Assembly: GCA_963774265.1 (NCBI GenBank)
Contig: CAVZDU010000001.1
Span: 1-64,000, forward strand
DNA: 64,000 nt
Origin: an uncultured Chloroflexia bacterium
Lineage (GTDB): Bacteria; Chloroflexota; Anaerolineae; CG2-30-64-16
Direction: 5' to 3'
Positions 20,732 to 35,009 of the stretch are shown here, piece after piece. The position numbers and the translations under genes were made by a program. The notes under the pieces were generated by a model. It was not told the origin of the DNA. It saw nothing but the letters and a program-made list of their open reading frames with translations, and did not search any database. Numbering within the stretch: the stretch's first letter is position 1; every line of letters starts with the position of its first letter.

Positions 20732-23019
20732 CTAGAACATCGGATCCATCATCAACGCCGGATGGCCGGTCGACTCGAGATGAGCCAGCAGGCCGTCGAC
20801 GTCGGTGCAGATCGTTTCATCCGCGATCTTGCTGATCAGGTCGGGGTCGCCCTCGCGCTCGGCAACGGCCTGCAGCTCTGCGGCCATGGTCTGCTTGAGC
20901 ACGCTGGACATCCAGACGACGCGGCTGAACCCACCATCTGCCGAGATGAACTTCGGGCTGGTCAGGTAGTACTTACCGACGCCCATGACGCCTGGGGTTT
21001 GCAGGCCGCCACCGGCCATGCCGGCCAGCGTGGAGAAGGTCATGCCCGCCGGGGTCATGCTCGTGTCCTCGCGGGAGACGACCATCACGCCGTTGGCCTC
21101 AGGAACCAGCATCACGATGCACTCGAAGCAACCGCAGGCCGTCATCGGACTGTTCATGATCGAGTACATGGCCACTTCTTGCACGGTGCCGTTGGATTTC
21201 TGCTGCGCGATCTCGTTCAGACCCGCGTAGATACCCTGGTCTCGGTCGATGGCCATGCCCTTGCGGATCGGCTGGTTCGGGCCGGTCGGGTTGATCTGGA
21301 AGGATGCCGCGCAGTCCAGGTAGTTGTATGCGCCGCAGAGGCCCAAGCGCTGCGGGCTGACCAGGCAGAGGTGGGTGGGTGCGAACGACTGGCATAGCGT
21401 GCAGGTGTAGAACTCCTCAACAGCCTCGTCGGTCATGTCGGCCAGGCGGTTGTTGCGGTAGTCATAGGCCTCGCGCGCCTTCTGCAGCCACTCGGCGTGC
21501 AGCGCCGGATCGGTGATGATCTTGACCTGGACCTTGTCGACGATCGCGCCGAAGTCGGCCATGAAGCGGGCGTGCAGGATGTCGCCGAAGTGCTTGAGCT
21601 CGAAGCCCTTTTCGGCCGCGGCCTTGCTGATGCGGATCCAGGTGATGTCGCGCTGGCCGATGTGCTGGATGCCGCTGGCGCCGTTGCACGAAGTAGTGAA
21701 TCTGGCGCTCGAGCACCGGCTCGAAGTCCTTCTGCATCTTGCGGCCGGCCACCTCGACGAGGATGCCCATATCGATGGACGCCGCCCTCGGGCAGATCCT
21801 CGAAGCTCGGACCGATCACCTCGATCTTGCCGTCCTCGACCTGATCCATGTCGATCATGCGCAGGTACTCGAACGCGCGGCTGTACTTGCCGCCGAACTC
21901 AACGCGCATGTCCTTCTTGCGAACGACCTCGCCCTCGAACGCCGAGCCGTAGGGCACCGGGATCGGGACTTCAGTCAGCTTGATCTTGACGCCGCGGGTC
22001 TCGACGCACTTCTGCACCAGTTTCTCCGCGCGCTCCAGGTCATCCTTGCCCTCGATCTCGTTGAAGGGCATGGAGATGACGTGCTCGTACGTCGTCACGC
22101 CGGTGGGCAGAATCTGCGGGATGCGGGTGTCCGCGATGACGGGGAAGCCGTAGTTGATTGCGCCGGCTGCGGCCGCGTACTTCAGGTCATCGACCTCACC
22201 CAGCGCCAGCACAAACGCAAAAACGCGCTGCCGATTGTAGAGCAGGATGTCCTTGGCCTGGCCGCCCTTCATGCCGCCAAAGGTTAGCGCAGAGCGGGTG
22301 GCGAAGCCCAATGGGGTAGATGGCCGAGAGCGTGTCAAGGCCGAACGGCACGATGTACGTGTCGTAGCCCATCTCGACGCCCTCTTCCATTAACTGGTGG
22401 ATCATCGAGCGGCCGTTGACGTTGCCGCAGAGGAAGATCAGGATGTTGCGCTTTTGCAGCTCGCGCACGATCTTGACCGCAACCTCGTTGCTCTTGGCGC
22501 AGCCGACGATGGCCGCGAAGCCGGGCATGCGGCCATCGACCAGCTGGATGCCCCAGGCGCGGAGCTGCACGTCGTCGATCGGGCCGTTGAGCAACCGCGC
22601 CGTTGCCGTTGCTGCGGCCAACCGTCCGGGCTGGTGAAGCTGCCGCCGGCCATGTGAAAGCCAGCCTTGAGGCCAGGCTCTTCGCCGTAGACGAAGCGCA
22701 CCGCCTCGATGATCTCGGCGGACAGCAGCGTTGCCATGCCGGAGTCCAGCGTCTCGCCCAGGTAGGGCGTCCAGCACTGCGCGGTCGGCATCGGATGCAG
22801 CAGATCCTTGGCGTGCTCGAGCACCGGCGTCAGCTCGCCCAGCTTGGTGACCTCGCGGCCGGTCATGCCCAGGATCGTGGGCAGGTAGTAGGCAGTATTC
22901 GGAAAAGCCACCGGCGTTTCAGGCCCGCGTTCCTTGAGGGCCTTGTTGAGCAACGCCTCGGCTTCCTGGGTGATCAGGTTCGCGCCGCGGATGGCGCGGG
23001 TAGCGATGTATCGTGACAT
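20732..23019 (-). CDS. acsB: Acetyl-CoA synthase (several frameshifts in this read)
   Basis: MSRYIATRAIRG, FPNTAYYLP, LVDGRMPGFAAIVG, AFEGEVVRK, A-cluster CTLCQSFAPTHLC..LCGA and PMTACGCFEC. Confidence 0.95.
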
Positions 23020-23094
23020 GTATGCTCCTCCTCCGTTGCAGTCGGACGCAAGTTGAAGGACGACCTTCCATCCGTCCCTGACCTGCTCCATTCG

Positions 23095-25079
23095 TTACCC
23101 GTAAATCTCCGCCATCTGCTCTTCGACCGGCAGCTCGAGATACGCTTCCATCGCCGCGTCGCCGGATGCGCCAAAGCGGGTCGGGTCGTAGACGGGCAGC
23201 TTGAGCGCAGCGCGCTTCTTGTCGATGTGCTCCAGCGTCTTCCGGACGATCTCCGCGGGCTCGACCACGAACTCCAGCTTGCCGCCGAAGCGTTCCTCCC
23301 ATTCCTTCGAGAGGATCTCGGTCACGCCATCGGAGAAGTCCACCGGGTTGCGGACACCCATCATGACGTACGCGCCGGAGCCGGCGCAGTACGCGGCGAT
23401 GGCCAGCGCCTTCTCGCTCATCCACTCGGGCGCCAGGCCCACGGCCGGGATGTCGCTGATGTCGTCGCCCAGGCCACCTTCGGTCGCCATCTGGCGTCAG
23501 GACGGTGAGGATGCGGCTGTTGTCCACGCAGGAGCCCAGGTGCAGCACCGGCGGGATGCCGATCGTCTCGCAGATCTCGCGCAGGCCGGGGCCGACCTTA
23601 TCCAGGCCCGCCTCGCCGAGCAGGTAGCCGTACTTGCCCGCGGCGAGCGCGCCGCAGCCGGTGGCGACGACGAGGACATCGTTCTTCAGCAGCTCGGTGA
23701 TGACCTCCATGTGCGCCTTGTCCTGCGTCAGGCCGGGGTTGTTGCAGCCGACGTCGGCCGCCACACCGCGGAGACGGCCGGTGGCGATGGCTTCGTTCAG
23801 CGGCCGGAACGACTGCCGGTACATGCCGCCCAGCATGTAGTTCAGGTACTCATGGCTGAAGCCCGGCACCACCGCCTGTGCGCTCGACTTGGGGATGCGC
23901 GTCTCGCCGCGGTTGGCGTAGTTGTCGCAGGCGCGCTTCACGATGCTCTTGGCGATGTCCAGCGCGTGATGCTCGTCGAACTCGATGTGCGTCGCGCCGG
24001 TCATCTTCACCTTCGGGCTGGTGGTGATGATCTCGGTGTGGAAGTGGCTCCGCCACGCCGGTCAGCGACTGCATGATGCACTGCACGTCCACGACCATCG
24101 CCTCGATGGCGCCGGTCAGGATCGCCAGCTCCTGGTTCAGGAAGTTGCCGGCCGAGGGGATGCCCTGGCGCATCATCACCTCGTTGGAGGTGCAGCAGAT
24201 GCCGGCCAGGTTGATGCCGTCCGCGCCCTTGCTCTTGGCGTAGGCGATCAGCTCGGGGTCCTGGACCGCGGTCACGATCATCTCGGAGAGGGTCGGTTCG
24301 TGGCCGTGGACGATGATGTTGACCTGCTTCTCTTCCAGGCAGCCCAGGTTGACCTCACCGACCTTGGGGCTGGGGGTGCCGAAGAGGATGTCGGAGATGT
24401 CGGTGGCCCACATCGAGCCGCCCCAGCCGTCGGACAGCGCGGTGCGCACGGCGGCCAAGAGGATGTGGCTGGCGTCCTGGTCGTCGCCCATGTGCGTGCG
24501 GTGCAGGATTTCGACGACCTCACGGTCGATGCCGCGCGGGGCCACGCCCTGCTCCTTCCAGATCGCCTGGCGCTTGGCCGGCGCGGTCGAGAGGTAGCTC
24601 AACTGGCCGCGCTGCTGGCCGAACTCGCCGATCGCCTTGTTCGCCACGTCCAGGGTGATCTCCTTGATCGTGCGCCCCTTGGTCGCGATGCCGTGCTTCG
24701 CGGCGACTGCGTACAGCTTGGCCTCATCGCGGACTTCGTAACCCTGGGCCTCGCCCAACGCGACCGCCTGCAGGGTAAAGGCCAGATCGCGGCCGTGGTC
24801 GGAGTGCGCAGCCGATCCGGCGGCGATGGCGCGCGCCAGGTTGCGCGCGGCGATGGTATCCACCGTCGCACCGCAGATGCCCACCTGCCCATCCTTGGTG
24901 AGCCGGCACGGCCCCATGTAGCAGTTCTTGCAGCAGATGCCGGACTGGCCGTTGCCGATGGTGCAGGGTTTGAAATCTGCCGCGCGGCTGAAGGAGGTCG
25001 AGATGCCCGCCACGTTGGCCCAATCCAGGATGTCGCAGGCCGCCGGATCAATGCTCGGAACGATGTTGATCTTCGCCAT
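23095..25079 (-). CDS. cooS: Ni,Fe carbon-monoxide dehydrogenase catalytic subunit (frameshifted in this read)
   Basis: CCKNCYMGPC, AAHSDHGR, and C-cluster ligands in HGHEP, GICCTSNE, VDVQC, GCNNP, TGC and GSCVDNSR; APEWMSEKA. Confidence 0.95.
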
Positions 25080-25091
25080 GAGTGTTACTCC

Positions 25092-25715
25092 TTAACGTTT
25101 CGTCTTCAGATCCCGCTCGTCGGTCTTGTATTGGCGCATACCCAGACGATTCCACGCGGGATCGCGGTGGCCGTCCTGCATGGGCACCGGCTGAGTCATG
25201 ATGCCGGAGCCCTCTGTGGCGACCGGGTACCCAGCCTCCTCCAGGGTCGCCATGATGGCGCCCGGAGTTACAGCCGCCGGGTCGTAGGACACGGCGACCA
25301 TACGGAAGGCGGAGCTGGCAATAATGTCCGTGACGCCGTTCAACTGGCTCAGGGCATCTCGCACCTTCAGAATGTGATGGTCGGCCCACAGATCGGGCAC
25401 GTTGAATTGGACTTTCTCCATGATGGGCATGCCTCCTTGAGGTGTGTGCATTGGTTCCAGGGTGGGGGCGGGAGTCATCGCCGCCTCTCGTTGCGGTAGA
25501 CCGGCGATCTCACGCCGGTGTTCGATATAAATCTCACAAAAATCACAGGTGATGTGGAGCGGAGCGCAGCAGCACGGGCTGCCTGCACATTGCTCCCAGC
25601 AGGAGCAGCCGTCGAGTGGAACGGAGCACTCCGCGCACGAAATCAGCCAGCCCGCAGGCTTGCCGTTTCCGTGCGCTCCGACGAGCTCCTGTCTAATCTC
25701 CCAACACGTTCTCAC
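25092..25715 (-). CDS. Cys-rich (CW-type) N-terminal domain in frame with an HMA-like domain; HMA part may start separately at 25430
   Basis: CWE..CAEC..CSCW..C..CCC..CDFC..Y, then KVQFNVPDLWADHHILKVRDALSQLNGV...VSYDP...LEEAGYP; internal AAGGAGG RBS before ATG 25430. Confidence 0.7.
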   Translation of the reverse strand: MRTCWEIRQELVGAHGNGKPAGWLISCAECSVPLDGCSCWEQCAGSPCCCAPLHITCDFCEIYIEHRREIAGLPQREAAMTPAPTLEPMHTPQGGMPIMEKVQFNVPDLWADHHILKVRDALSQLNGVTDIIASSAFRMVAVSYDPAAVTPGAIMATLEEAGYPVATEGSGIMTQPVPMQDGHRDPAWNRLGMRQYKTDERDLKTKR

Positions 25716-25841
25716 GTTTCACTCTCGATGGCTGAAGTTGAAGGGCCGGCAGGGTCAGGCAGCGCCGGCACATCGTGCATCTTTGCACGGAGTCGCGTGT
25801 TTCGCTATGACGGCCATCATGAATGGCCATTATCTCTGGGG

Positions 25842-25884
25842 AAAAAAAAACGCCTGACCCGCGCGCAATAGCGGGTCAGGCGTT
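25842..25884 (-). terminator. Intrinsic terminator inside the leader of the CODH/ACS operon
   Basis: Minus strand AACGCCTGACCCGC-TATTGCGC-GCGGGTCAGGCG followed by T9; no same-strand gene upstream, so it is an attenuator. Confidence 0.85.
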
Positions 25885-25922
25885 CGTCACCTGGCAGATG
25901 GGGCAGGCCGTCATCAGCCTGC
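25877..25922 (-). promoter_or_regulatory. Candidate ANTAR-binding dual-hairpin antiterminator RNA
   Basis: P1 GCAGGCU-GAUGAC-GGCCUGC (25922-25903), 9-nt linker, P2 CAGGU-GACGAAC-GCCUG (25893-25877) overlapping the terminator 5' arm. Confidence 0.55.
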
Positions 25923-25961
25923 AAGATATACTCAATTAGAGTACAAGGTCGAAAGAGACAA

Positions 25962-25983
25962 ATACATGATCTTAATCATGTAT
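25962..25983. promoter_or_regulatory. Palindromic operator-like site in the divergent promoter region
   Basis: ATACATGAT-CTTA-ATCATGTAT with perfect 9-bp arms. Confidence 0.55.
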
Positions 25984-26070
25984 CAGGCTGGGTTTAATTT
26001 CACAACAATGATATACTCTGAAAGAATCCCTGAAGTCATTATGTCGCATAATGTGACAAGGAGGTCATCG

Positions 26071-27288
26071 ATGCCAAAGCCTGTCGTGCTCGTCGGCGCC
26101 CTGGATACCAAGGGCGAAGAGTTCCGCTTTGTCCGCGATCTGATCGCAGCGCGCGGGCTGGAAACGATCCTGGTGGACTTCGGCGTGGTGGGCGACCCGC
26201 CTGTGCAGCCGGATGTCACGGCCGATGAGGTCGCGCGTGCCGGCGGCAGCAGCATCGCCGAGCTGCGTGCCAGTCAATGACAAGACCGTTGCGATGGAGA
26301 CCATGGCCGCTGGTCTGGCGAAGGTCGTCAAGGGTCTGTATGATGCGGGCCGATTGGGCGGCATCCTGGGCATGGCTGGCAGCGGCGGCACCTCCATCGC
26401 CACGCGCGGCCATGCGCGGGCTGCCAATCGGCGTGCCCAAGGTGATGGCTTCCACGGTGGGCGGCGGCGACGTGTCGGCCTACGTCGGCACGACCGACAT
26501 CACCATGATGCCGACCGTGGTGGACGTGGCCGGCATCAACTCGATCAGCCGGCACATCTACGCCAACGCAGCGGGCGCGATCGCCGGCATGGTTAGCCAG
26601 GCGCTGCCCGAGGTCGCTGAGGCTAAGCCACTGATCACCGCCAGCATGTTCGGCAACACCACCGCAGTGCGTGAGCCGGGCGCAGAAGGCGCTGGAGGCT
26701 CAAGGCTACGAGGTGCTGGTCTTCCACGCCACCGGCACCGGCGGCAAGACCATGGAATCGCTGATCGCCAGCGGCTTCATCACCGCCAGCCTCGACATTA
26801 CCACCACCGAGCTGGCCGACTACGTCTGCGGCGGCGTGATGAGCGCCGGGCCCGAGCGCATGCTGGCCGCCGCGCGCGCCGGCATCCCCACCGTGCTTGC
26901 CCCCGGCTGCGTCGACATGTGCAACTTCTGGGGCATCGACACCGTGCCGCAGCAGTACCAGGGGCGCAACCTCTACCAGTGGAACCCGAACGTGACCCTG
27001 ATGCGCACCACGATCAGCGAGAACATCCGCATGGGCCAGATGATCGCCGCGGCAGCGAACGCCGCAACGGGACCGGTCGCAATCCTGTTGCCGCTCAAGG
27101 GCGTGTCACAGCTCGATAGCCCCGGCGGCCTCTACTGGGATCCTGAGGCCGACGCCGCCTGCTTCGACGCGATCAAGGCGAACCTCAAGCCCGGCATTCC
27201 GGTGATCGAGATGGATCACAATATCAACGACCCCGAGTTTGCGGACAAGGCGGTCGAGATGTTGTTGGGGATGTTGAAGACGAATTGA
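26071..27288 (+). CDS. Tm-1-like ATP-binding protein (UPF0261); frameshifted in this read
   Basis: [58 protein letters not shown] and VTLMRTT. Confidence 0.88.
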
Positions 27289-27297
27289 GATGTAAGA

Positions 27298-27367
27298 GTG
27301 AAGATTCAAGATTGGCGCCAGTGTGGAACAATCTTAACTGCAATCTTCAATCACTAATCGCTAATCG
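27298..27367. repeat. Degenerate heptamer repeats forming an imperfect hairpin
   Basis: GAAGATTCAAGATTG ... CAATCTT, CAATCTT, CAATCAC, TAATCGC, TAATC. Confidence 0.5.
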
Positions 27368-27377
27368 GAGGGACAGT

Positions 27378-28212
27378 ATGGCATTCATCACGCGCGAAGA
27401 AGCGCTGAAGCACCTGCAGGCCCAGGGCGCGGCAGGCAAGCCCATCGTCGGCTGCGGCGCGGGCACGGGCATCTCGGCCAAGTGCGCCGAGGCCGGCGGC
27501 GCCGACCTGATCATCATCTACAACTCGGGGCGCTACCGCATGGCGGGCCGCGGCTCGCTGGCCGGCCTGCTGTCCTACGGCGACGCCAACGGCATCGTGG
27601 TCGAAATGGCCGCGGAGGTGTTGCCGGTCGTCAAGAACACGCCGGTGCTGGCCGGCGTCAACGGCACCGATCCCTTCCGTCTGATGCCCGTCTTCCTCAA
27701 GCAGCTCAAGGAGATGGGTTTCACCGGCGTGCAGAACTTCCCCACCGTGGGCCTGATCGACGGCAACTTCCGCGCCAACCTGGAAGCCACTGGCATGGGC
27801 TACGACAAGGAGATCGAGGTCATCGCCGAGGCGCACAAGCTGGACCTGTTGACCACGCCCTACGTGTTCGACACCGACCAGGCCACGCGATGGCCAAGGC
27901 GGGCGCGGACATGCTGGTGGCGCACGTCGGCCTGACCACCGGCGGCTCCATCGGCGCCGGGGTCGCGATGACGCTGGACGAGGCGATCGACCGGGTCATG
28001 CAGATCGCCGCGGCGGGCCGCAAGGCTAAGCCCGACATCCTGATCGATCTGCCACGGCGGCCCGTTTGACGAGCCGGAGGCGGTGGCTCAGGCGCATGCT
28101 CCACATGCCGGGGATCGCCGGCTTCTTCGGCGCCACCAGCATCGAGCGCCTGCCCACCGAACGCGCGATCACGGGGCAGGTGAAGAATTTCAAGGGGATG
28201 AAGCTGGGCTAG
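27378..28212 (+). CDS. Phosphoenolpyruvate hydrolase family (TIM-barrel signal transduction) protein; frameshifted in this read
   Basis: [52 protein letters not shown] and [11 protein letters not shown]. Confidence 0.9.
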
Positions 28213-33168: not shown

Positions 33169-33747
33169 TCAAAACATCCGATCCGCCATCACGACGGCTT
33201 CCGCCACCTCCGAAAGCTTCCGATTGGTGTCCTGGCTTTGCTTCTGCAGCCGCTTGAAGGCCTCGTCCTCGGTCAAGTTCAGCCGCCGCATCAGGATGCC
33301 CTTGGCCTTTTCCACCACCTTGCGGGCTTCCAGTGCATCGCGCAGGTCAGCCACCTCGCGGCGCAACGACTCGAACTCCTTGAACCGGGTCAGAGCAAGA
33401 GTGATCGCAGGCAGCAGATCGTCTTCGGCGACTGGCTTCATCAAGTAGGCTGAGATGTTGGCCCGCGCAGCTCGCTCGACCAGTTGCGCCTCACTATATG
33501 CGGTCACCAGGATAATAGGGATGGGCCGCGCCTGGGTGATGAGCTCTGCCGCCTCGATGCCATCCATGACGGGCATCTTGATGTCGAGGATGGCCAAATC
33601 GGGCCGGTGCTCCGCGGCGAGTCGCACCGCCTCGTCCCCCTGGGCGGCCTCCGCCACGACCCGGTGGCCCAACGCTGTCAGTTGCGCTGCCAGGCTCAAC
33701 AGGCGGATGCTCTCATCGTCGGCGATTAGGACGCGCAAGGATTTCAT
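33169..33747 (-). CDS. Response regulator with ANTAR RNA-binding output domain (EutV/PdtaR-like)
   Basis: LIADDE, ILDIKMPVMDG, VTAY and YLMKP receiver; LEARKVVEKAKGILM...EDEAFKRLQKQS ANTAR domain. Confidence 0.93.
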   Translation of the reverse strand: MKSLRVLIADDESIRLLSLAAQLTALGHRVVAEAAQGDEAVRLAAEHRPDLAILDIKMPVMDGIEAAELITQARPIPIILVTAYSEAQLVERAARANISAYLMKPVAEDDLLPAITLALTRFKEFESLRREVADLRDALEARKVVEKAKGILMRRLNLTEDEAFKRLQKQSQDTNRKLSEVAEAVVMADRMF

Positions 33748-33758
33748 ATCGTCGCAGC

Positions 33759-34949
33759 CTACTTGTAGAAGGTGACCGTGGCTGTGGTGCCGCCCGCGCC
33801 CCGGCCATCCAAGCGGAGTGAGCCGGCCAGGTCCTTTTCGGCCAGCGTGCGTGCGATGCGCAGCCCCAATCCCCGACCCGTCGAGAGGTCGAAGCCAGAC
33901 GGCAGTCCGCGGCCGCTGTCTCTGATGGTCAGTGTGACCTCCGGCCCTTCCTGCGCCAGCTCGATCTGCAGATGGCATGGATGGTGACCGATGGGGAAGG
34001 CGTGTTCGAGCGCGTTGGAAACGAGCTCGTTAATGATGAGAGCAAGCGCGGTGGCTTGCTTGGAGGGCAAGTAGATCGGCGGACCGGTGATTTCCGCCAC
34101 GATCCGTCGATCGGGCCGCACGAAGTTCTTGAGCGAAATGTCGCACACCTGCCGTGCGAGTGCAGTGATGTCGGTTAGCCGGAGTTGTTCCAGAGACAGC
34201 AGCTCGTGCACTGCGGCGATGCTCTTGATGCGGCCTACGCTGTCGCGCAGGCTCTTGCGCGCCACGGGCGAGGGGCTGGCAGACATCTCCAGACTCAGCA
34301 GGTCGGCCACGGTCTGGAGATTATTCTTGATGCGGTGGTGCATCTCCTGCAGCAGCGCGGCCAACGCATCCGCGCGGCGCGCCTCATCCCGCAGCCTCAG
34401 GTTCTCCAGCGCGAAGCCGATCTGCATCCCCACCGAGCGCAAGAGGGCCATCTCCGGTTCGCCGAGCGCAGCGTGGCCATGACGGCTGCCCACATGGAGC
34501 ACGCCGAGTGTCCTGTCGCGTGCAAGCAGGGGAACCGCCGCGCATGCGCTAAGCTTGGTGCGACCATGACACCCCTCGCGCGTGACGGATGGATCAAGGG
34601 TAATGATCTCCCCACCTGCCGGCGACGGGGTGAAACTGACGAAGCCACACCGGCACTTGCCGGGCTCCATATTACTTTGGACAGGATCGAGGAGGTGGGG
34701 ATCACCCTCGGCCGCGGCAAGACTATACTCGCCGGTCGCCGCATCGAGAAGGTAGATGCGCCCGCTGTCGAGACCGAGCACCTGGAGCATCTGGCGCAGG
34801 GCTGCGTGTAACGCATCGGACTCGGTCAGCTCCTGGTTGATAGCCGCGGACACAGCGAAGAGCGCGGCTAACTCGCGCACGCGTTGCTGTTCCCCGTTAG
34901 TGCCGGCTGCGCTTTGGGGAACGGAAGGAAGAGAGGGGGGCGCAGTCAT
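33759..34949 (-). CDS. Cytoplasmic GAF sensor histidine kinase (HisKA_2, EutW/PdtaS-like)
   Basis: GAF domain; QEMHHRIKNNLQ H-box, NELVSNALEHAF, DSGRGLP and GLGLRI; no TM segments. Confidence 0.92.
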   Translation of the reverse strand: MTAPPSLPSVPQSAAGTNGEQQRVRELAALFAVSAAINQELTESDALHAALRQMLQVLGLDSGRIYLLDAATGEYSLAAAEGDPHLLDPVQSNMEPGKCRCGFVSFTPSPAGGEIITLDPSVTREGCHGRTKLSACAAVPLLARDRTLGVLHVGSRHGHAALGEPEMALLRSVGMQIGFALENLRLRDEARRADALAALLQEMHHRIKNNLQTVADLLSLEMSASPSPVARKSLRDSVGRIKSIAAVHELLSLEQLRLTDITALARQVCDISLKNFVRPDRRIVAEITGPPIYLPSKQATALALIINELVSNALEHAFPIGHHPCHLQIELAQEGPEVTLTIRDSGRGLPSGFDLSTGRGLGLRIARTLAEKDLAGSLRLDGRGAGGTTATVTFYK

Positions 34950-34974
34950 GGGTCAGGCGTCCTTGCCTTAAGCG

Positions 34975-35009
34975 ACACTTGCCCTGGCGCCGCCTGCCAG
35001 GGCAAGTGT
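34975..35009. other. 14-bp perfect hairpin between tatA and the kinase gene
   Basis: ACACTTGCCCTGGC-N7-GCCAGGGCAAGTGT; no U-tract. Confidence 0.5.

Follow-up and report, generated by a model that had tools for sequence, protein, structure and literature searches.

A conserved tandem-hairpin leader as a probable ANTAR antiterminator of the CODH/ACS operon in an uncultured Anaerolineae bacterium

The locus

The stretch of DNA analyzed here, called the window, comprises the first 64,000 nucleotides (nt) of contig CAVZDU010000001.1 from an uncultured Chloroflexia bacterium of the class Anaerolineae (assembly GCA_963774265.1). Its minus strand carries a CODH/ACS operon (carbon monoxide dehydrogenase and acetyl-CoA synthase) of the Wood–Ljungdahl pathway, which the initial annotation had proposed to be gated by an ANTAR-type antiterminator. 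We compared the 81-nt element in question (25842–25922, minus strand) with relatives from the same family and class. The element is most likely the 5′ leader of a Cys-rich/HMA–cooS–acsB operon, and would serve as a protein-dependent transcription attenuator. Judging by sequence and gene neighborhood, the leader is probably a phosphorylation-dependent ANTAR antiterminator of CODH/ACS, controlled through a dedicated REC-ANTAR regulator (paralog A).

The element lies in the minus-strand intergenic region 25716–26070, between a divergent UPF0261 gene (plus strand, ATG at 26071) and the Cys-rich/HMA-like gene. It is composed of a first hairpin (P1), a linker, a second hairpin (P2) and an intrinsic terminator with a U-run, with a predicted promoter upstream and the three-gene series downstream. 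The first operon gene (25092–25715, minus strand) has its GTG start codon at 25715, 126 nt past the U-run. Since the UPF0261 gene points away from the leader, the terminator has no gene to end in this genome, and both this point and the distance of about 125 nt given initially hold. The encoded protein has a Cys-rich N-terminal region of about 13 Cys, an HMA-like domain (Pfam HMA, 25.1 bits) without CxxC and a conserved start, M-[RK]-x-C-W-E-I-R. By these features, a role as a metal (Ni?) chaperone for CODH/ACS is possible.

Downstream lie cooS (Ni-CODH; 22919–25079, minus strand; Pfam Prismane/CODH, E = 2e-91), which is frameshift-split in the assembly according to its open reading frame (ORF) pattern, and acsB (acetyl-CoA synthase; 20732–23091, minus strand), which is present as four overlapping ORF pieces. 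The latter gene was named by eye from the translations, as were those past it, namely a ferredoxin–NADP-reductase-like gene, acsD, acsC and further genes. Breakage into overlapping ORFs was observed for cooS and acsB (20732–25079), for the UPF0261 gene (26071–27288) and for a PEP-hydrolase-like gene (27285–28069), which fits the indel errors of a long-read assembly. Single-base arguments in the window therefore need the relatives.

Structure and folding of the leader

P1 (25922–25903, minus strand) reads GCAGGCU-GAUGAC-GGCCUGC and has a 6-base-pair (bp) stem, an invariant U·G pair and a GAYGNN loop. The 9-nt linker, read from the sequence as CCCAUCUGC (25902–25894, minus strand), leads to P2 (25893–25877, minus strand), CAGGU-GACGAAC-GCCUG. 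In this hairpin, CAGG/CCUG and again an invariant U·G pair enclose a loop of GNYGA plus 2–3 nt. The terminator scan located the intrinsic terminator at 25842–25885 on the same strand, with the stem at 25885–25848 and a U-run of nine U at 25850–25842. The stem comprises 12–15 bp; the scan counts 15 pairs, 10 of them G-C, and an 8-nt loop. The two hairpins, the gap between them and the strong terminator, all of which had been described in the initial annotation, are present.

The 3′ arm of the antiterminator hairpin P2, GCCUG, forms the first 5 nt of the terminator 5′ arm in 14 of 14 aligned sequences and in the wider set. The two structures are mutually exclusive, as had been proposed, and the sequence, the alignment and the energies agree on this point. 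Folding of the 216-nt leader gave z = −5.07 relative to shuffled sequences. The calculated energies were −13.3 kcal/mol for P1, −6.8 kcal/mol for P2 and −28.9 kcal/mol for the terminator, and the nascent RNA folded as P1 plus P2. The full leader reached −47.5 kcal/mol, as compared with −33.4 kcal/mol when P2 was enforced, and the terminator form is favored by about 14 kcal/mol. These energies fit a default-off switch.

Conservation and covariation

In a blastn comparison of a 676-nt region with 40 relatives, cross-genus conservation was limited to the 81-nt element and the coding region. The conservation of the element is far beyond chance, and its flanks are not conserved. A covariance model of the element (R1) matched 32 of the 37 family genomes, representing 15 of the 17 genera, with a single copy in each genome except for two in G004 and a weak second match in G006. 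In the window genome, the R1 search returned one match, the leader itself, and no further copy. Each of the 31 loci fetched has the Cys-rich/HMA gene downstream of the element. Next comes cooS in 30 loci; the sequence of the last one stops too soon for a decision. The start codon lies only 13–22 nt past the U-run in six loci (L036, L038, L039, L044, L047 and L048), which argues that the element is a 5′ leader and not a separate gene followed by a promoter of its own for the operon.

The alignment revealed compensatory changes in 6 pairs of the terminator. For the hairpins, we used a P1–P2 model (R2) and an alignment of 37 sequences, of which 31 belong to the family, 5 to other families and 1 to a Caldilineae metagenome-assembled genome (MAG). 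Standard pairs accounted for 97.5% of the cells, and for 99.5% in P2 alone. Both-sided changes were detected in 7 of the 12 pairs (P1 5/7, P2 2/5). None of 500 shuffles matched the observed value on any measure, and pairing fell to 31–46% when the partners were slid. A covariance model was the check suggested in the initial annotation; the hairpins proved both conserved and covarying.

Two further matches were inspected and rejected. The extra R2 match in the window genome (C5:147515) is inside a coding region and has no terminator, and the blastn match L020 in G009 is spurious, coding-like sequence.

The loops are highly constrained. The U and G flanking both loops are invariant (37/37). The P1 loop has 6 nt in 30 of the 31 family loci, and its G1, A2 and G4 are each found in 36 of 36 sequences; in the P2 loop, G1 occurs in 37, G4 in 36 and A5 in 35 of 37. 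The sole A4 is found in the P2 loop GAUACAC of locus L052 (G013:C242:3280-3648), where the frame of the adjacent paralog A has two stop codons; either joint decay or an assembly error would account for both. According to PMC3369931, an ANTAR target comprises a pair of short hairpins that bear hexaloops, carrying A1 and G4, the second of which overlaps the terminator. The same paper states that EutV works with linkers of 5–12 nt and fails with 3 or 14 nt; surveys list linkers of 2–25 nt (PMC3369931, PMC8164766). All 31 family loci have linkers of 8–10 nt, inside the EutV working range. In the EutV–RNA crystal structure, G4 stacks on Tyr164, and A1 makes no specific protein contact (PMC8934654).

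The linked two-component system

The GAF-HisKA_2 kinase and the REC-ANTAR regulator that had been noted about 7 kb from the leader were both confirmed by Pfam. The regulator gene (paralog A; 33169–33747, minus strand) encodes a protein starting with MKSLRV and bearing the signature QSQD. It scored 89.7 bits for Response_reg (PF00072, cut-off 30.2) and 84.1 bits for ANTAR (PF03861, cut-off 27.3), and its best solved relative is 1s8n (E = 1e-46). The GAF-HisKA_2-HATPase_c histidine kinase (33759–34949, minus strand; Pfam matches above the cut-offs) is encoded 11 nt upstream of the regulator gene. Its GAF domain has conserved Cys at residues 100, 102 and 137. The motif P-G-E-C-x-C-G ... C-A-A-V-P-L is kept in 14–15 of 19 aligned kinases; these cysteines are absent from the paralog A partners in families f39 and f6, where other sensor modules are found. 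The cysteines suggest a metal, Fe-S or redox cofactor in the kinase, and may indicate that it senses redox state, a metal or a gas.

At least one ANTAR gene was found in 35 of the 37 family genomes. There are usually two, and a PdtaR-like type, paralog B, is present in nearly all genomes. A regulator search by exact peptide words retrieved three close orthologs only. We aligned 43 ANTAR proteins (19 rows of type A, 21 rows of type B plus outgroup, and 3 ambiguous ones). The leader-linked type A bears the signature ...ILMRRLNLTEEEAFRRLQ[KR]QSQDTNRK... in its 19 rows, and the PdtaR-like type B is characterized by ...ILMDKQGLSEAEAFRKIQKMSMDNRK.... Positions were hand-counted on a HMMER alignment to chain 6wsh, which we took as EutV because its single Tyr and the Met eight residues further on match Tyr164 and Met172. 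By this hand-counted mapping, type A has Phe, still aromatic, at the Tyr164 position that stacks on G4. The Met was kept in the 21 type B and outgroup sequences. On these signatures, the linked regulator is a distinct paralog. We infer that the departures of the RNA and of the protein from the canonical pair, which meet at the loop interface, belong together.

The ribosome-binding site (RBS) of the kinase gene carries a hairpin, AGGC-AAGGAC-GCCU (34955–34968, minus strand), whose AAGGAC loop looks canonical, followed by ACCC-AUG. The initial annotation had described this hairpin correctly, and had linked it to the leader through a common 11-mer. This link was not borne out. The 11-mer has 13 occurrences in the 5.5-Mb genome and looks like a chance match; as a second ANTAR site the hairpin was rejected, being absent upstream of 15 orthologous kinase genes and without an R2 match at E ≤ 1. 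It is probably outside the system. Between tatA and the kinase gene, a perfect 13-bp hairpin, CACUUGCCCUGGC-AGGCGGC-GCCAGGGCAAGUG (34976–35008, minus strand), was observed, with no U-run after it.

Synteny and phyletic pattern

Comparison of the R1 and ANTAR gene coordinates showed that 22 of the 32 element-bearing genomes have an ANTAR gene upstream of the element, with contig and strand shared. The gap amounts to about 90–140 nt in 11 genomes, to 0.6–2.1 kb in 6, and to 4.7–8.8 kb in 5, those of the genus to which the window belongs (g1). Contig ends account for several of the other 10 genomes, e.g., G020, G042, G002 and G005. In tblastn searches, the direct order kinase, regulator, element, Cys-rich/HMA and cooS was found in 14 of 31 loci. 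The kinase gene is mostly preceded by tatA. The kinase/REC-ANTAR pair is the immediate upstream neighbor of the leader in most family genera. The distance of about 7 kb in the window results from an insertion of unrelated genes between regulator and element, which is particular to its genus; the element remained beside the operon. This gene order recurs in a 'Caldilineae bacterium' MAG (L069), where the promoter is a textbook TTGACA-17-TATATT. Its stems are wholly different (P1 CGGUGC/GCACCG, P2 GAGG/CCUU), and its loops are of the same UGAGG.../UGAUGA... type.

For the class, paralog A was defined by E ≤ 1e-62 to the window protein (known A ≤ 2.6e-73, B ≥ 1.7e-57). In an even sample of 151 genomes, 11 contain paralog A. 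R2 matches at E ≤ 1e-6 were found in 9 of the 151, and all nine carry paralog A. The other two paralog A genomes match more weakly (G075, R2 1.7e-4; G155, R1 8.2e-6). Weak R2 matches in 10 class genomes without paralog A were judged by eye to be false positives, as they are coding-like and have no stem plus U-run. In G029, which belongs to another family, paralog A is directly followed by an R1-like element and then by a CcmF-like gene. Loss patterns were seen as well. G019 (98% complete) has tatA–HMA–cooS, and neither the kinase, paralog A, the element nor the Cys-rich domain was found there; G023 has paralog B only and a degenerate element (41.9 bits) in which the P2 5′ arm is gone. In both of these genomes, which are without paralog A, the HMA part alone is left of the Cys-rich/HMA gene. 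All of these phyletic and co-occurrence counts serve as description rather than as a statistical test.

The ANTAR antitermination reading is supported by the adjacency in most genera, the distinct paralog, the co-occurrence of motif and paralog, the P1/P2 covariation and the synteny in G029.

Upstream promoter-like site

A palindrome of the form ATGAY-N4-RTCAT with CRP/FNR-type half-sites (TGA-N6-TCA) was located upstream of the element at 25966–25979 and is conserved in 30 of 31 loci. We propose it as an activator site of the leader promoter. A TAnnnT-like hexamer lies 30–35 nt from the palindrome center, corresponding to a class II (−41.5) geometry, and this spacing is conserved. In the window, the −10-like hexamer is TACTCT (25938–25943, minus strand), which places the predicted start of transcription near 25931, some 9 nt ahead of P1. 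The same calculation puts the start a few nt before P1 in every family case. The palindrome has 45 copies in the genome, as compared with about 6 expected from the base composition. Six Crp/Fnr-type genes are present in the genome, none of them in the window. One palindrome copy, C10:209478, was observed at the start of a Crp/Fnr-family gene (helix-turn-helix at C10:209970-210194), whose product is a candidate for the cognate, autoregulated factor.

Counter-evidence and alternative explanations

Several findings weigh against the ANTAR reading. Loop position 1, canonically A, is G throughout (P1 36/36, P2 37/37), as had been noticed for both loops of the window. The P2 loop is not a hexaloop: of the 31 family loci, 27 have a loop of 7 nt and 4 have one of 8 nt. 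By the hand-counted mapping, Gln occupies the Met172 position of EutV in 19 of 19 paralog A proteins; Met172 plugs the loop and is called obligatory for RNA binding (PMC8934654). The Rfam covariance scan of 25300–26300 at E ≤ 10 gave only chance-level matches to small RNAs. The paralog A threshold was chosen after the scores had been seen, and the related genomes are not independent, so that the co-occurrence counts overstate the support. G018 (97% complete) has an element whose P1 contains a mismatch and whose U-run is poor, and only paralog B was found in this genome. Conversely, the searches of G009 and G044 (92% and 75% complete, fragmented) turned up paralog A, but neither an element nor a Cys-rich/HMA gene. 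Finally, a second palindrome with an extended −10 element forms a putative terminator-independent promoter in 14 of the 31 loci, including the window. A start downstream of the terminator had been named in the initial annotation as a refuting observation, and this promoter-like site is of that kind.

The 7-nt P2 loop had originally been regarded as one indel away from a hexaloop in an error-prone read. This explanation was ruled out: all relatives have a loop of 7–8 nt, which implies that the loop in the window is real and no read error. The likeness to the EutV, NasR and AmiR leaders stands in part. The element has the ANTAR geometry, G4, the terminator overlap and a linked regulator, but lacks A1 and the P2 hexaloop. 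Because of these two departures, it is not a plain member of the ANTAR targets.

The same departures, together with the missing Met plug of paralog A, would suit a conditional terminator that responds to another effector, be it the PdtaR-like paralog B, another RNA-binding protein or a small ligand, with the synteny reflecting co-regulated neighbors. The G018 element, found with paralog B only, and the presence of B in nearly all family genomes point in this direction. However, the motif was not found in the 140 class genomes without paralog A, many of which presumably carry B-type proteins (B was uncounted there). In two families, the element comes directly after paralog A, although the downstream genes differ. 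Two short hairpins with like loops look more like the site of a dimeric protein than like the pocket for a ligand. The best Rfam match, naRNA4, scored 22.5 bits, below its gathering score of 59.5, and no riboswitch or leader family was matched at a relevant level; a match to a known metabolite riboswitch had been listed beforehand as an outcome that would speak against an ANTAR target. We consider a different effector unlikely.

The second promoter-like site bears on another alternative, in which the element would be an independent small RNA or the terminator of the kinase–regulator operon, and CODH/ACS would be transcribed from its own downstream promoter. The second palindrome copy (25807–25820) lies past the terminator and occurs in genera g1, g4 and g15. 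At 30–35 nt from its center, a TGc-AAAGAT extended −10-like element (25779–25787, minus strand) predicts a start near 25772. The block CCGTGCAAAAnTGCACGATGT is conserved in the loci having the second palindrome, i.e., the window and 13 others. Furthermore, where the regulator adjoins, there is no other terminator between its gene and the element. On the other side, the remaining 17 of the 31 family loci have no second palindrome, and in the six loci with start codons close to the U-run a promoter would not fit in between. The element of genus g1 was kept beside the operon and not beside the displaced regulator genes. The covarying P2, complementary to the terminator arm, would have no role in a plain terminator. 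We regard this explanation as very unlikely. If the second promoter is active, the ANTAR gate would control only part of the operon transcription in the window's genus.

Public sequencing runs bear on the same question. The organism is poorly represented in them, and the best run contained at most 0.13 of the sampled words. RNA contigs, compared at 80% likeness, mostly cover the cooS genes of relatives; such contigs cannot show RNA ends, and the parts left uncovered are uninformative. One metatranscriptome contig of a relative spans the element and extends into the coding region at a depth of about 4. It hints, weakly, at co-transcription of the leader with the coding region, contrary to a separate small RNA or terminator.

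A conserved palindrome or hairpin, CGUGCA-AAAG-AUGCACG (25771–25792, minus strand), overlaps the putative second −10 element, and its variant in L031 (CAUGG...UCGUG) stays paired. Either an RNA hairpin formed in read-through transcripts or an operator for a protein would be conceivable.

That paralog A binds the leader and acts otherwise, through a termination-promoting fold, translation or mRNA stability, is scarcely likely at all: actinobacterial ANTAR RNAs mostly act at the RBS (PMC8164766), the U-run abuts the RBS in six loci and the G075 element has no obvious terminator, but the P2/terminator overlap and the U-run, both kept in the family, fit the geometry of EutV, NasR and AmiR.

Proposed mechanism

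Under the ANTAR antitermination reading, transcription would begin about 9 nt before P1, at the predicted start, with the CRP/FNR-type site at −41.5. P1 and the weak P2 would fold first. As the 3′ arm of the terminator emerges, it would draw the 3′ arm of P2 into the stabler terminator, and RNA polymerase would halt at the U-run. Upon its signal, the GAF-HisKA_2 kinase would phosphorylate paralog A, and the resulting dimer may grip both U·G-closed G-A/N-Y-G... loops. P2 would then be held closed and the terminator blocked, allowing read-through into the operon.

Related elements were observed in other Anaerolineae families. Loci L053, L054, L056, L059, L064, L066, L067, L193 and L227 have UGAYG loops and terminators, with up to three elements per genome. 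The L056 and L059 elements lead genes for a NiFe hydrogenase small subunit, that of L054 a gene for a multihaem cytochrome c, that of L067 one for a 4Fe-4S dicluster protein and that of L053 one for a NuoE-like 2Fe-2S protein; CcmF-like genes are also among those led by such elements. The L064 element precedes a gene for a rhodanese-domain protein with a signal-peptide-like start, and L066 is followed by a homologue judged from its start alone. A class-wide paralog A regulon of anaerobic energy metabolism is possible. In G075, locus L218 (C91:34702-34751) has sound P1 and P2 hairpins and no U-run terminator, and a perfect complement of its P2 loop sequence UGACGAGCG lies about 60 nt downstream. 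These features suggest a different output mechanism for the G075 element.

One tentative reading, which we put forward as a possibility somewhat short of even, goes further. Paralog A may represent a separate ANTAR subfamily with an RNA code of its own, made up of U·G-closed G-A/N-Y-G loops of 6 nt in P1 and 7–8 nt in P2, read by a domain that has Gln in place of the Met plug, and missed by searches for A1/G4 hexaloops. The pair of RNA and protein would form an Anaerolineae-wide switch for anaerobic energy and carbon metabolism, acting on CODH/ACS here and on NiFe hydrogenase, multihaem cytochromes, cytochrome c maturation and rhodanese-type genes elsewhere. Its input would come from the Cys-rich GAF kinase, sensing the redox state, a metal or CO.

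Significance and comparison with known systems

To our knowledge, little is known about the regulation of Wood–Ljungdahl and CODH/ACS genes beyond a few model acetogens and methanogens. We found no report on CODH/ACS regulation in uncultured Chloroflexota. A full-text literature search combining ANTAR with CODH/ACS, Wood–Ljungdahl, Chloroflexi/Anaerolineae or hydrogenase found no such control, in a scope that left the supplementary target tables of PMC3369931 and PMC8164766, which could list such sites, outside its reach. The sole match was an aerobic cox transcriptome. A 2025 review treats AmiR, NasR and EutV.

With the present element, a candidate two-component system and RNA switch can be named for the CODH/ACS pathway, down to the exact nucleotides to mutate. 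The element would widen the ANTAR recognition code, in that G4 and the dual-hairpin geometry persist without A1, the strict hexaloop or the Met plug. This implies that current search models are probably blind to an entire subfamily. The hydrogenase and cytochrome elements in sister families suggest a class-wide anaerobic energy regulon.

Among the known systems, GnfK/GnfR of Geobacter sulfurreducens is reportedly a two-component ANTAR regulator proposed to relieve termination before nitrogen-fixation genes. It would likewise serve an anaerobic metal-enzyme pathway, and differs in phylum and in its target, nitrogen fixation. PdtaR (Rv1626) of Mycobacterium tuberculosis is the closest solved relative (1s8n) of the window's regulator, being also a REC-ANTAR protein of a high-GC host. 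Its partner PdtaS is a cytoplasmic GAF-containing HisKA_2 kinase, like the kinase described here. However, the PdtaR-like protein of these genomes corresponds to paralog B, in which the Met is kept, and not to paralog A. Actinobacterial ANTAR target sites are less strict, most of them overlap the RBS or the start codon and few have terminators (PMC8164766), whereas a clear terminator is present here.

NasR–nasF of Klebsiella oxytoca and AmiR–amiE of Pseudomonas aeruginosa resemble the present system in having a single leader terminator before one operon, relieved by an ANTAR protein whose gene is near the target (PMC3369931, PMC12591593). They differ in that these regulators are not phosphorylated response regulators (a NIT sensor in NasR, sequestration by AmiC for AmiR), in their A1/G4 loops and in serving nitrogen-source pathways. 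The EutW/EutV-controlled eutP, eutG, eutS and eutA leaders of Enterococcus faecalis (PMC3369931, PMC8934654) share with the CODH/ACS leader the pairing of a kinase with a REC-ANTAR regulator, the tandem hairpins with like loops, G4, a linker within 5–12 nt and the overlap between P2 and the terminator. In contrast to the Eut leaders, the element described here has G1 instead of A1, an invariant U·G closure, a P2 loop of 7–8 nt and longer stems of conserved sequence, and its regulator carries Phe and Gln where EutV has Tyr164 and Met172. The target is CODH/ACS and not ethanolamine use, and there is one target per genome in place of four.

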